Source of the DNA: an uncultured Phycisphaerales bacterium
GTDB lineage: Bacteria > Planctomycetota > Phycisphaerae > Tepidisphaerales > Tepidisphaeraceae
Length of the DNA: 64,000 nucleotides
Direction: 5' to 3'
Assembly (NCBI GenBank): GCA_963755915.1
Contig: CAVWLP010000002.1
Coordinates: forward strand, 672,001-736,000
In this document: one piece after another, positions 10,831 through 15,006 of the stretch
Position numbering within the stretch: position 1 is the stretch's first letter
Layout of the letters: the number at the start of each line of letters is the position of its first letter
Notes under the pieces: model-generated
What the model was told of the DNA's origin: nothing
Seen by the model: the letters and a program-made list of their open reading frames with translations, nothing else
The model's database searches: none
Position numbers and translations under genes: made by a program

Positions 10831-10929
10831 TCGGCTCTGCGTCAGCAAGTTCGTGAAATGCGTCAACCGCCGGCGCACTCGGTGTGCGTTCCAATACTGT
10901 GAATCCAAGGGGTGAGATGGGAAGATGCG

Positions 10930-12390
10930 ATGACGGTAAAACTGCGCAAAGCGGTTCATTTAGGGCTGGGATTTGTTATTTCATTGTTATTCGCGAGCGG
11001 TTTGAGGGCGCAGTATATTGGTCCACCCCCAGGGGCACCGACGTATGAGTTGGTCGCGCTCAACGGATCTCAGGCCCCCGGTGAGCCCGCGGGCGTGGAT
11101 TACAATGGGTTTGGAAATCCGGCCTACTCGGGATCGGGAGTTTATGGGTTTGAGGCGGGGTTGACGGGGACGGGGATCACGTCCAGCGTGAACTCGGCGA
11201 TTTTCCTTGGGTCTCCCACAAGCCTTTTGCCGGCAGTGCAGAAGGGGGCGTCAGCGGCGGGAACGCCGGGCGACGTCTTTACGTTTTTGTCAGCGCCGGG
11301 GGTGGCGGCGAATAATAATTTCGCGTTTTTCGCAGAGATCGGCGGGGGAGATGTGGTGGGGACGACGAATTATTCGGGGCTATGGGGAGGGACGCCGGGG
11401 AATTTGAGCCTTCTGTTCCGCAAGGGGAGCCCGGCGGCGGGAACGAGCGGGGCGGCGTATTCGAGTTTTGGGGATCCCGTCATCAGCGACAATGGGCTGG
11501 TGGCGGCGGAAGTGAACCTGACGGGTGGGGATGTGAGCGGAAGCACGAACAACGCGGGGATCTATACGGCGACTTCGACGTCGGTAAACCTGATTGCGCG
11601 AAAGGGAAGTTCGGTGCCGGGACTGGGCTCCGATTTGTATGGGGGGCTGGGGGATCCAACGATCAGCCCGAATGGGATCGTAGCGTGGGAAGGGGCTTTG
11701 AGCGGCGGGGATGTTTCGGGGACGACGAATAACGCGGCGATTTTTACGGCTGTGCCGGCGAATCCAGTTACCGTTGCGGTGCGCAAGGGAGTGACGGTGG
11801 CCCCGGGCACGGTGGGTGGGGATGTGTTTTCGTTTCTGGGGGATCCAGATGTAAACGCCAGCGGGCAGATTGCGTTTTACGCGAATGTTACGGGCGGGGA
11901 TGCGGTGGCGGGCGTGAACGACGAGGGCGTCTGGGCGGGCCCGGCGGGTTCGCTGAGCCTGATCGCGCGGCGCGGCGAATCAGCCCCGGATACGCTCGAT
12001 ACGTTCAACAGTTTTCAGGATCCGATCATCGGTCCCGATGGGTCGACGGCATTCATCTCGACGCTGACCGGTTCGGACGTGGTGACCGGGACGGGCGGAA
12101 ACGATGTGGGATTGTTTGCGGGGACGGGGGATGATTTGCAACTAATCGTGCGCAAGGGAGAAAGCTTTGCGGTGGACCCTTCCAATCCCAACTCGGCGAT
12201 TGAAGATGTAGCCGGGATTGATCTGATCAACGACAGCAGCGGCGTGGTGGCGTATTACCTGGACTTCACGGATGGGTCGAGCGGGGAATATCTTTCTACG
12301 GTGCCGAGTGTTCCAGAGCCGGTGACGGGTATGGGAATGCTGGTCGGGGGGATGGTGTTGATGGGCCGGCGGAAGCGGGTTGGGGTCTGA
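10930..12390 (+). CDS. PEP-CTERM surface protein with tandem NxxGxxAF-type beta-propeller-like repeats
   Basis: Signal peptide; about six repeats of ARKG..APGT..F..LGDP.(N)..G.IAF; ends VPEP-hydrophobic helix-RRKR. Confidence 0.85.
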   Translation: MTVKLRKAVHLGLGFVISLLFASGLRAQYIGPPPGAPTYELVALNGSQAPGEPAGVDYNGFGNPAYSGSGVYGFEAGLTGTGITSSVNSAIFLGSPTSLLPAVQKGASAAGTPGDVFTFLSAPGVAANNNFAFFAEIGGGDVVGTTNYSGLWGGTPGNLSLLFRKGSPAAGTSGAAYSSFGDPVISDNGLVAAEVNLTGGDVSGSTNNAGIYTATSTSVNLIARKGSSVPGLGSDLYGGLGDPTISPNGIVAWEGALSGGDVSGTTNNAAIFTAVPANPVTVAVRKGVTVAPGTVGGDVFSFLGDPDVNASGQIAFYANVTGGDAVAGVNDEGVWAGPAGSLSLIARRGESAPDTLDTFNSFQDPIIGPDGSTAFISTLTGSDVVTGTGGNDVGLFAGTGDDLQLIVRKGESFAVDPSNPNSAIEDVAGIDLINDSSGVVAYYLDFTDGSSGEYLSTVPSVPEPVTGMGMLVGGMVLMGRRKRVGV

Positions 12391-12468
12391 GTGGGCGAGC
12401 CGTCGGCGTTTGGGAATGCTGTCTGATTCGGGGGATGGAGTGAGATTTTTTGACCGCGAAGATTTTTT

Positions 12469-12592
12469 AACCGCCAAGAGCCAAGGAAGAGCTGGCATCG
12501 TGTATTTTGATGATCAGGGGCGGGGGTTCAGCGTGGGATGCACTTATCCAAGTGATTTGGGGATTTATATTTCTTGGCGCTCTTGGCGTCTT
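12469..12592. repeat. REP-like inverted repeat (aaccgccaag...cttggcggtt) whose right arm is interrupted by the IS110
   Basis: Left arm aaccgccaagagccaag (12469-12485); right arm ttcttggcgctcttggcgtctt (12571-12592) resumes as ggcggtt at 14078-14084. Confidence 0.75.
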
Positions 12593-12609
12593 CTATGAGC
12601 CGAGCCTTG

Positions 12610-12918
12610 TCAAGGGGCGTTGATCGCTCATGCGGTCGATTGGGTGAGCCTTCTATTCAGTGCTCTCGCCTGGCGGCGGGCCTATTCAACTGTACAAATG
12701 GCCAGCCCTATTCTTAGCGGCAAGCTTTGAAGCTTAAGACGCCAACCGGGGTCTGGCCTTGCTCATTCAACCTGCACGAACGCGTCAATTCCACTTCACT
12801 TCAACTCTACTCAATCCCCTGCACAGAAGACAACGGCTTTCTGACACGGTGTCTTCCGGAGGGGAGATACTCCATCGCCTGTACCGACTTGTCGGGACAG
12901 TCATCGCCTTTTCGATTT
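12610..12918 (-). ncRNA. Putative bridge/seek RNA of the IS110 element; target-binding loop at 12700-12758, RNA ends uncertain
   Basis: A stem-bounded internal loop carries a 10/10 match to the left target flank and an 8/9 match to the right flank, on opposite strands, separated by a small hairpin. Confidence 0.75.
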
Positions 12919-13962
12919 TCAAGTGGCCGCCGTCAGCGATCGCTGGGGTTCTCTCCATCGGGTTCCGTCCCGCAGCATCGCCCACAGCTTCACCAGTAAT
13001 CTCCTGGCTACCGCAACAATCGCGATCTTCTTGCGCTTCTCGCTGTCACGTAGAACCCTCTCGTACACGTCCTTCATCCACGTATTGCGATGAACCCCCA
13101 GCCACGCCACCTCCACCAGCAACTCCCGCAGCAGCGCGTTGCCTGCCTTGCTGATCCGCCCCTGGCGATCGCTGTCGCCGCTCTGCCAGCGCCGCGGCGT
13201 CAGACCCACGTAACATCCCACCTGACGTGCATTCTTGAATCGCCTGGGATCATCAATGATCACCGCCACCGCCTCGCTCAGCCGCGGACCAACGCCGGGC
13301 ACCTCCTGCAATCGTTTCACCGCTTTGTTGGCCTGGCCCAACTCCTGAAGCTTGCTTTCGACAGTTTCGATCTGCTTCTCCAGGTGCTCCAGTTGCGCCA
13401 CCTCACAACCGATCTGAAACAGCCACAGATCTTCCGCCGATGCGGCCGCTGCTTCCTTCCTCATTTCCTCCAGTCGCGCTTTCGTCCACGCCTTGGTCGC
13501 CGAGGGCAAATACAAACCCTGCCGCTCGTAGATTGATCGGATCGAGTTCTTGAGCGCCGTGCGGCGATCCACCAGGCCGTGTCTGTATTCAATCAATGAA
13601 CGCCACTGCCGAACCGATGCCTTGGGCACGTGCACCGTCGGCAGCGAATCCATCTCCGACATCGCCGCCATCTTCAGCGCGTCTTTACGATCACTCTTCT
13701 CCTTCACCGTCTTCCAGCGCCAGCGTTCATCGTTGCCATTGGCCACCTGGACGGGAACATTGTTCCGCTCCGCCAGATCACAAACCCATCCTGCCGCCGG
13801 ACCGGCCTCGATGACCAGTCGATCCGGACGCACCCGCTCGAGTAGTTTTTGCACCTCGTGGGCATTGGTGCCGATCTTGCCGAACGTTCTTTCTCCACCG
13901 CCGGTGACATAATCCACAAAAACGCTCTTGTTCTTTCCCAGGTCCAAAGCGAGAATTCGCAT
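12919..13962 (-). CDS. IS110-family DEDD transposase/recombinase
   Basis: ILALDLGK (D), LVIEAG (E), KSDRKDA (D,D), VPGVG, GLTPRRWQSG (Ser finger), GRISKAGN, AIVAVARRL; GAAAGGA ribosome-binding site. Confidence 0.95.
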   Translation of the reverse strand: MRILALDLGKNKSVFVDYVTGGGERTFGKIGTNAHEVQKLLERVRPDRLVIEAGPAAGWVCDLAERNNVPVQVANGNDERWRWKTVKEKSDRKDALKMAAMSEMDSLPTVHVPKASVRQWRSLIEYRHGLVDRRTALKNSIRSIYERQGLYLPSATKAWTKARLEEMRKEAAAASAEDLWLFQIGCEVAQLEHLEKQIETVESKLQELGQANKAVKRLQEVPGVGPRLSEAVAVIIDDPRRFKNARQVGCYVGLTPRRWQSGDSDRQGRISKAGNALLRELLVEVAWLGVHRNTWMKDVYERVLRDSEKRKKIAIVAVARRLLVKLWAMLRDGTRWREPQRSLTAAT

Positions 13963-14103
13963 TGCCGAGTCCTTTCTCAAAAAAGACGTTTGAGCGACCT
14001 ACGCGGTACGCTCGTTCATACTTGGGGCATTTTGACCCCGTTCACGTCCCGAGAAAGGCTCGGCTTCATAGTTTCTTGGCGGTTAGAAGCGTTTAGAGCA
14101 GTT

Positions 14104-15006
14104 TCATTTCTTCGCGTCATAGGCTGGGCTGGCTACATCTTCGATTAGGCCTGGTTGGGTGGGGCGCCAGGCGGTGTGGTGGCGGGTGATGGTGGAGGAG
14201 GAGGGATTTGACATGGCGGCGAAATGGGCGAACCAGCCGAAATGGGCCGCGGCCTCATCGGTCGATTTGCTGACCGTCTGGAGATTCAGGCGGCGGGCGA
14301 TGACGGCGGCGATGTCTCGGAAGGGGATGCCTTCCTCGGCGACGGCGTGAAATCTTTGTCCGGTGGTAAATCCTTTTTCGAGGATGAGGCGGTAGAGTTT
14401 CGCGGCGTCGAGGCGATGGACGGCGGGCCAGGGGTTGGTCCCGTCGGCGACATAGGCGGAGAGGCCTTTTTCGCGGGCGAGGGCGATGAGGTGGGGGACG
14501 AAGCCATGATCGCCCTGGCCGTGGACGGACGGGGGGAGGCGCAGGACGGAGACGTGGATGCCGCGGGCGGCGAGGGAGGCGGCGGCTTCTTCGGAGGCGA
14601 CGCGAGGGAGGGCGCTGGGGCCGGAGGGCGGGGCGTCTTCTTCGGTGGCGACTTTGCTGCCGGAGACGAGGCCGGTTCCGGAGGTGACGATCAGGGGACG
14701 TTGTGAGCCTTGGAGGGCGGAGCCAAGCGATTCAATTGCGCGGCGGTCGATTTCGCAGTTCTCCTTAAATTTCGTGAAATCGTGGATGAAAGCGGTGTGG
14801 ACGACGGCTTCGGAGGCGGCGGCGCCTTGGCGCAGGCTTTCGAGATTTTCGACGTCGCCGCGCTGGACTTTGGCGCCGGCGGCGGAGAGGGATTGGGCGG
14901 ATGAATCGCTGCGGGCGAGGCCGAGGACCTGGTGGCCGGCGGCGATTAGTTCCTTTACCACGGCTGAGCCGACGAAACCTGTTGCTCCAGTGACAAAAAC
15001 TCGCAT
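14104..15006 (-). CDS. NAD-dependent epimerase/dehydratase (extended SDR)
   Basis: MRVFVTGATGFVGSAVV, VVHTAFIHDF, WPAVHRLDAA. Confidence 0.9.
   Translation of the reverse strand: MRVFVTGATGFVGSAVVKELIAAGHQVLGLARSDSSAQSLSAAGAKVQRGDVENLESLRQGAAASEAVVHTAFIHDFTKFKENCEIDRRAIESLGSALQGSQRPLIVTSGTGLVSGSKVATEEDAPPSGPSALPRVASEEAAASLAARGIHVSVLRLPPSVHGQGDHGFVPHLIALAREKGLSAYVADGTNPWPAVHRLDAAKLYRLILEKGFTTGQRFHAVAEEGIPFRDIAAVIARRLNLQTVSKSTDEAAAHFGWFAHFAAMSNPSSSTITRHHTAWRPTQPGLIEDVASPAYDAKK

Follow-up and report, generated by a model that had tools for sequence, protein, structure and literature searches.

In IS621, a member of the IS110 group of insertion sequences (IS), a DEDD recombinase works with a guide RNA (bridge RNA or seekRNA) whose two loops each read both DNA strands, and a CT core takes part in every pairing (Durrant 2024, PMC11208160). 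The same paper predicts bridge RNAs in 93% of the catalogued IS1111 elements, including the repeat-targeting ISPpu10 and ISPa11; ISPpu10 is one of the six elements with a predicted bridge RNA in its Extended Data Fig. 10c. Here we analyse a window of 64,000 nucleotides from an uncultured Phycisphaerales bacterium (assembly GCA_963755915.1, contig CAVWLP010000002.1), and within it an IS1111-type element at 12590-14076. An earlier reading of the letters, called here the original prediction, had proposed that this element carries a guide RNA programmed against a palindromic repeat.

According to Siddiquee 2024 (PMC11187229), IS1111-group transposases measure 330-350 aa and contain a GL-P----S(t)G motif, the longer of the two non-coding ends follows the gene, and the subterminal inverted repeats (7-17 bp) have short extensions on their terminal side. 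The seekRNA of ISPa11 from Pseudomonas aeruginosa co-purifies with its transposase, and the related transposases of ISEc11 and ISXne4 keep the RNA stem and change the target-matching bases with the target, a natural redirection (PMC11187229). In many IS1111 elements, the bases that bind the donor belong to a multi-loop and not to a simple internal loop (Durrant 2024, PMC11208160). We find that the window very probably holds an intact IS1111-group element with a seek/bridge RNA of ~125 nt (~12766 to 12642, minus strand) encoded in its 3' non-coding end.

An IS1111-group element in one arm of a host repeat

Together with both copies of the core dinucleotide, which adjoins either end, the element spans ~1.48 kb (window 12590-14076), and the transposase gene is its only long gene. 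The encoded protein matched both IS110-family domains (Pfam PF01548, E = 2.9e-10; PF02371, E = 2e-24) and passed the NCBIfam equivalog model NF033542, 'IS110 family RNA-guided transposase', with 216.6 bits at a cut-off of 140. Residues D7, E52, D91, D94, S261 and G262 were invariant across 5 relatives. When compared with the solved ISCro4 (E = 3e-18) and IS621 (E = 1.3e-16) proteins, the C-terminal domain alone aligned by sequence. The non-coding ends measure 326 nt downstream of the gene and 115 nt upstream of it, and subterminal inverted repeats of 14 and 15 nt, located 1 and 3 nt away from the core, are kept in 58 related loci. Both domains, the motif GLTPRRWQSG, the length of 347 aa, the downstream tail and the subterminal repeats are thus present. 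Insertion was orientation-specific, at one sequence, and with no target duplication beyond the shared core in 9/9, 4/4 and 14/14 copies of three genomes. By these sequence features, the element is an IS1111-group member of the IS110 family.

The window genome (G000; 6.6 Mb, 3 contigs) contains nine full copies, seven of them 100% and two 99.93% identical, and the transposase frame is open in all nine. The site and the orientation are the same for every copy: each splits one arm of a long palindromic repeat, and the occupied site reads ..TAACCGCC[AAGA..IS..]AAGACGCCAAGAG.. in transposase orientation. The uninterrupted 15-mer CCGCCAAGACGCCAA occurs 22 times in the genome as empty sites of the element's own type, the 15-bp target being CCGCCA-AG-ACGCCAA. 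CCGCCAAGACGCC was found 26 times, versus once for the alternative reconstruction CCGCCAAGAAGACGCC. Excision of 12593-14077 from the sequence gives back TTGGCG-TCTT-GGCGG, with a boundary that slides within the shared TCTT (4 bases).

A predicted target loop reads both strands of the insertion site

The tail is predicted to fold into a stem-loop in which a basal stem (ggccagccc, 12700-12708, with ggggtctggcc, 12748-12758) and an apical hairpin enclose an internal loop (Table 1). The 5' strand of the loop, UUGGCGUCUU, pairs with the transposase-sense strand of A-AG-ACGCCAA, which comprises one flank base, the core and the right flank. The 3' strand, CCGCUAAGA, pairs with the opposite strand of CCGCCA-AG-A, comprising the left flank, the core and one base. 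UUGGCGUCUU lies 5' of CCGCUAAGA, and the two overlap on A-AG-A at the insertion point, which is the order published for the seekRNAs of IS1111 elements. On the + strand, with a CT core, the layout equals that of IS621; read in the direction of the transposase gene, the two strand matches come in the opposite order, which is the arrangement given for IS1111 elements in PMC11187229.

When the whole tail is folded by minimum free energy (RNAfold), the guide strands pair with one another, a result set aside in view of the near-palindromic target. With the guides held open, folding gave the structure just described, and the alignment consensus agrees with it. Mononucleotide shuffles of the tail reached the summed exact guide matches of the window element in 13 of 2000 cases, and those of three relatives in 60, 4 and 11 of 2000. 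A search of 12000-14600 against Rfam (E up to 1) found no family for the RNA, the one hit being a chance snoRNA match of 18.7 bits at a cut-off of 39. The motif GAAU(A)GGG stands after the core-reading bases of the 3' target guide (columns 62-68 of the RNA alignment A2, see below; window ~12705-12712) and also opens the donor hairpin (columns 92-99; window ~12680-12687). It may serve protein binding in each of the two RNA halves.

These results agree closely with the original prediction. Every string that it quoted, including the restored repeat arm, was found in its place, and its assignment to IS110/IS1111 was borne out by PF01548, PF02371, NF033542 and the group features. The element is intact, as claimed, with all frames open in copies 99.9-100% identical, and the RNA lies in the 3' end, in the 326-nt tail, as PMC11187229 describes for the group. 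The proposed stem, apical hairpin and internal loop recurred in the open-guide folds and the consensus, and the loop strands matched the target at 10/10 (12736-12745) and 8/9 (12712-12720) positions. The claimed left/right layout of target guides gained support from the relatives' matching guides and from the covariation described below.

Guide and target change together among relatives

A family-level search of 141 genomes gave 19 with a match at E <= 1e-30, the window genome included, and four relatives were informative. In G124, a genome of the same genus with a 90% identical transposase, all four copies lie at GACGCC-AAGA-GCGCCAA in the same repeat. This site is one 8-nt sub-repeat further along than that of the window element, with the target A-GA-GCGCCAA. 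The 5' loop strand of G124 is UUGGCGCUCU instead of UUGGCGUCUU, a perfect complement of the shifted site, and the 3' loop strand is unchanged, as is the left flank that it reads. The guides of G000 and G124 therefore differ by 3 bases for a site shift of 8 nt. The window genome also holds 22 empty sites of the G124 type (CGCCAAGAGCGCCAA, the own type being CCGCCAAGACGCCAA), none of which is occupied; all nine insertions are in the own-type site.

G123, whose transposase is 73% identical, has all 14 of its copies in a repeated sequence unrelated to the palindromic repeat, CAGGCC-AG-CCARC, and the guides are GUUGGCU and AGGCCAG. Other targets again, with loop strands to match, are found in G138 (66-68% identical) and in a Pirellulales element (L079, 51% identical). 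A more distant relative, in G048, is 40% identical. The nine copies of the window genome share one site, and the guides of these four relatives track their targets. The covariation of loop and flanks in homologues, which the original prediction had named as a check, was present in G124, G123, G138 and L079, as well as in the 58-locus tests below. From this natural retargeting we infer that the element would be reprogrammable.

The G123 target has conserved context on both sides (..aaggc..cga..tcaggcc-ag-ccarc..gcagcgccaacgcc..) and is possibly a repeated coding motif. In that genome 14 sites are occupied and 12 empty sites fit the narrow pattern. A different form of this target, CAGGCCAGAAGCC, gave 1 match only, without the shared context, and was replaced by TCAGGCC-AG-CCARC.

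The core is a single dinucleotide

The crossover could not be placed from the window genome alone, because AAGA (TCTT on the + strand) is shared by the junctions and the target. Across G000, G124, G123, G138 and L079, the sole sequence common to junctions and empty sites was CT/AG. The empty sites of G123, TCAGGCC-AG-CCARC (12 of the 28 matches of a loose pattern, two inspected ones sharing the wider context of occupied sites), leave AG alone as shared. Therefore the core is AG in transposase orientation and CT on the + strand. A core within TCTT had been proposed; it does lie there, but is narrowed by the G123 empty sites to CT and is not the whole TCTT. With an AG core all close relatives obtain one circle junction, CTCATAGA-AG-AAACTATG, and the ends of the element (12592..14074) are placed to within the core by empty sites in a relative's genome and in the window genome. 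At locus L119, GG stands at both junctions and also in both RNA positions.

Guides and stems covary across 58 loci

An alignment of five transposases, run against metagenome contigs, gave 310 stretches encoding relatives, and the best 80 of the 310 were kept. The 53 of the 80 that had the two ends CTATG..CATAG and flanks of 18 nt or more were joined by 5 genome loci, which makes 58 loci. Alignment A2 consists of 43 non-redundant RNA regions, with three rows that had long insertions left out.

Columns 25, 26, 28, 29 and 30 of A2 covaried antiparallel with right-flank positions +6, +5, +3, +2 and +1 (z = 4.0-5.6), and columns 56, 57, 59, 60 and 61 covaried parallel with left-flank positions -5 to -1 (z = 4.5-6.7). 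Both converge at the invariant core. By summed exact matches to the tail of the locus, the own flanks outscored 95% or more of unrelated flanks in 36 of 58 loci. Over the 21 consensus pairs, 94.0% of the cells pair, compared with 77.7% in shuffled alignments (0/500 shuffles equal it) and 31-42% in a control with slid partners. Cells changed on both sides numbered 154, versus 46 in shuffles, and 17 of the 21 pairs have such changes. The compensatory changes indicate that the stems of the predicted RNA are real.

The lineage had been called poorly sampled. This holds for cultured or named elements, since the closest match among 72,556 plasmids is 40% identical to the transposase and IS4321-type elements in that search are ~23% identical, but not for metagenome contigs, with their 310 relative-encoding stretches.

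A candidate donor guide beside a conserved hairpin

A donor hairpin, UAGGCCCGCC..GGCGAGAGCACUG, comes directly after the target stem-loop; at its column pair 97/169, 23 sequences have AU and 20 have GC. The sequence AUAGAAG starts one base 3' of this hairpin and is a candidate donor guide. Of 54 loci, 51 carry the same triplet behind AUAG in the RNA and behind CATAG in the DNA (39 AAG, 10 GAG, 1 AGG, 1 AAA). A FastTree phylogeny of the transposases places the GAG class in one clade (12 rows), of which one member has AAA in both RNA and DNA. The candidate at 12650-12656, which the original prediction had named with little confidence, is thus supported, as it reads right end plus core and co-varies with them (51/54 loci, ~3 independent events).

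On the 5' side of the hairpin, the strand ACAGUUGAA may act as a weak left-end guide. Its counterpart in G124 gives a 6-nt left-end match, AUAGUU. In the related loci L136, L146 and L150, the left end is AAG instead of AAA and the RNA is AACU, a partial co-change that does not extend the pairing. The RNA may read the donor on one side, that is right end plus core with the 7 nt just 3' of the hairpin, and the left end may be recognized mainly by the protein via the subterminal repeat.

A 56-nt hairpin and neighbouring features

Between the transposase stop and the guide RNA lies a 56-nt hairpin of the form CCCCUCC-GGAAGACACCG-loop-CGUUGUCUUC-..GGGG. Two IS21-family elements of the window genome (~10 and ~31 copies) have a stretch 84-86% identical to it after their IstB domain, where, as in L018, the hairpin is ~190-215 bp from the 3' end. 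A search with nhmmer found 52 copies in all, including 3 single places. Because a 1-nt indel shifts the reading frame of the stretch from one element to another, its conservation is at the nucleic-acid level. The G000 and G124 elements have the hairpin and those of G123 and G138 lack it; it may be a processing or stability module. We would give little credence as yet to a broader conjecture, that a Planctomycetota-centred IS1111 branch reads its donor one-sidedly by RNA and, separately, that the 56-nt hairpin is a portable module for processing or stability.

About 40 short matches to 12824-12879 were considered as related IS110 elements and rejected, since they are IS21-family elements. The window genome is rich in insertion sequences, with ~41 copies of the two IS21-family elements besides the nine IS1111-type copies. 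These two elements end in ..GTGACA or ..GACTGACA, and their flanks are varied.

The element and its repeat occupy the spacer between two convergent genes. The gene upstream of the repeat (10912-12390, +) encodes a 492-aa protein ending in VPEPVTGMGMLVGGMVLMGRRKR, which we take to resemble a PEP-CTERM sorting signal; the other gene (14104-15006) encodes 300 aa.

Table 1. Positions of the features discussed in the text (window coordinates unless a genome is named)
Feature	Position	Strand	Remarks
Insertion sequence proper, 1483 bp	12592..14074	-	ends common to 9 copies; ends AAACTATG...CTCATAGA in transposase orientation
Core CT, right-end junction copy (AG in transposase orientation)	12590..12591	+
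Core CT, left-end junction copy	14075..14076	+
Transposase gene, 347 aa + stop	12919..13962	-	DEDD/RuvC-like N-domain, Transposase_20 C-domain with GLTPRRWQSG
Subterminal inverted repeat, right end ctatgagccgagcc	12593..12606	.	pairs with 14057-14071
Subterminal inverted repeat, left end ggctcggcttcatag	14057..14071	.	pairs with 12593-12606
Palindromic repeat, left arm aaccgccaaga	12469..12479	+	string read at place
Palindromic repeat, interrupted right arm	12573-12591 plus 14077-14084	+	split by the element
Target-binding stem-loop of the predicted guide RNA: basal stem, internal loop, apical hairpin	12700..12758	-	compensatory changes, 43 sequences
Apical hairpin aagctttgaagctt of the target loop	12722..12735	-	two pairs covary
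5' loop strand, aagacgccaa, RNA UUGGCGUCUU	12736..12745	-	10/10 match
3' loop strand, tcttagcgg, RNA CCGCUAAGA	12712..12720	-	8/9 match; mismatch is an rU:dG wobble
Strand 5' of the donor hairpin, ACAGUUGAA	12685..12693	-	possible weak left-end guide, AGUU versus AACT; conserved across relatives
Donor hairpin UAGGCCCGCC..GGCGAGAGCACUG	12658..12684	-	9 pairs, covarying; 97-98% of cells paired
Candidate donor guide AUAGAAG (cttctat on +)	12650..12656	-	identical to right end + core, cATAGA-AG
TTGACA, -35-like hexamer in the right end	12608..12613	-	would face the left end after circle formation; putative function
56-nt hairpin module between transposase stop and guide RNA	12824..12879	-	common to IS21-family elements of the same genome
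G123 copies	L033, L052, L061-L072, L162, L165 (genome G123)

Expression and the circular form

The TTG of the TTGACA hexamer in the right end is at a constant distance from CATAG in ~49 of 58 loci, and the predicted circle-junction sequence is CTCATAGAAGAAACTATG. Two metatranscriptome libraries have assembled contigs that touch the element; parts without cover carry no information, and the contigs are no more than a hint of expression because such libraries can contain DNA. Apart from one contig considered below, they belong to a G124-type variant and include the loop region and flanks. Two contigs of run X20, at 12589-12787 and 13667-14081, have the G124-type guide, with three changed bases at 12737-12739, and G124-type flanks; this variant is thus present in a rhizosphere sample, which comes from another study than the possible source.

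Discussion

On the basis of these results, we propose the following mechanism. The element inserts at CCGCCA-AG-ACGCCAA within the palindromic repeat, always in a single orientation and in one of the arms. In the internal loop of the first stem-loop of the predicted RNA, as the sequence matches and covariation show, the 5' strand pairs with the transposase-sense DNA strand over core and right flank, and the 3' strand with the other DNA strand over left flank and core. A second hairpin is followed by AUAGAAG, which reads right end plus core, a role shown by co-variation, albeit in few independent events. By analogy with the work on IS621 and ISEc11, the DEDD transposase would bind the RNA and join the circle (CTCATAGA-AG-AAACTATG) with the target, with strand exchange at the 2-bp core. 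The circle junction would place the right-end TTGACA before the left end, where it could drive the transposase gene and the RNA.

Several observations weigh against this account. The exact-match test failed to separate own from other flanks in 22 of the 58 loci, and no more than 22 of the 58 show exact matches that reach 6 + 6 nt and are ordered and spaced as expected; part of this shortfall is due to mismatches, short guides and misplaced ends. On the donor side, 3 of 54 loci differ by one base between guide triplet and DNA, and the agreement in the others amounts to ~3 independent co-changes because the GAG class forms a single clade. The left-end strand matches just 4-6 nt and does not cover the core. 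A promoter and terminator scan of 12400-14300 found no sigma-70-like promoter and no intrinsic terminator. The circle junction had 0 matches in the assembly, and the contigs, which cannot show rare forms, had no joints that would support a circle or an excision, and the one RNA-library contig identical to the window element (205 nt, on 12755-12959) misses the guide loops. This lack of promoter, circle and guide-loop RNA would also be seen if a true IS1111 member with a guide RNA gene were silent in its host, its nine copies stemming from one past burst with neither RNA nor circle made now. We consider such silence improbable, since the 99.9-100% identity of the copies and their intact frames argue for recent activity. 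The lack of a promoter in situ fits the published view that transcription starts from a promoter made at the circle junction (PMC11187229), and expression of that kind is expected from the literature to be transient.

The match between loop and flanks could also have arisen without a guide. The target is a repeat, so that repeat-like words could enter the element by recombination, and RNAfold pairs the two guide strands together owing to the near-palindromic target; the loop might then be a captured piece of the repeat, with the protein choosing its site by reading the repeat's hairpin. This explanation is very hard to reconcile with G123, G138, L079 and most metagenome loci, which have other targets and carry matching guides at the same structural positions. 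It also conflicts with the 3-base guide difference that tracks an 8-nt shift inside one repeat, and with the splitting of the two halves around a hairpin in the published order of IS1111 seekRNAs. Short GC-rich words do recur, and one 8-nt cross-match was seen between the window tail and the target of another element. Even so, chance resemblance in a stem-loop that is not a conserved RNA is ruled out for practical purposes by the covariation of the structure, which 0/500 shuffles reach, and by that of guide and flank. A guide RNA encoded in the tail of the element thus accounts best for the sequence data.

The locus provides a clean natural case of RNA-guided retargeting, in which 3 guide bases separate sister elements whose sites lie 8 nt apart. 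The 58 loci, from genomes and from soil or peat metagenomes, have readable guides, targets, ends and a CT core, and are raw material for collecting compact bridge/seek recombinases outside Proteobacteria. The picture of how bridge/seek-RNA elements work is unchanged by this element. The literature library searched held no paper linking IS110 bridge RNAs with Planctomycetes, and the supplementary tables of the two 2024 papers may list close relatives.

Comparison with known systems

ISPa11 resembles the window element in targeting a repetitive extragenic palindrome, in carrying its guide RNA in the 3' non-coding end, and in having subterminal inverted repeats. In both elements the RNA matches each target strand over a short stretch; these stretches overlap where the element inserts, and the one for the top strand comes 5' of the one for the bottom strand. 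The two elements differ in host phylum, target and ends, and the likeness is one of description, the RNA of the window element being predicted from its sequence. ISPpu9 and ISPpu10 of Pseudomonas putida are likewise IS110-family elements that target repeats and have a gene for a small RNA behind the transposase gene (PMC12288879), and here, too, the likeness is by description and not by sequence.

The series G000, G124 and G123 shows the same joint change of guide and target as ISEc11 and ISXne4. The step from G000 to G124 differs in being minimal, with 3 bases and 8 nt inside one repeat, and for ISEc11 there are transposition assays where our evidence is the sequence. With IS621 (structures 8wt6-8wt9) the window element shares a DEDD recombinase and a CT core. 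In IS621, however, the RNA lies upstream of the gene, whereas that of the window element lies downstream, and the donor of the window element is read clearly on one side only, beside a hairpin and not in a plain internal loop. To judge from the literature searched, the lineage is new, but the mechanism is not: bridge/seek RNAs of IS1111 elements, repeat-targeting ones included, were published in 2024.

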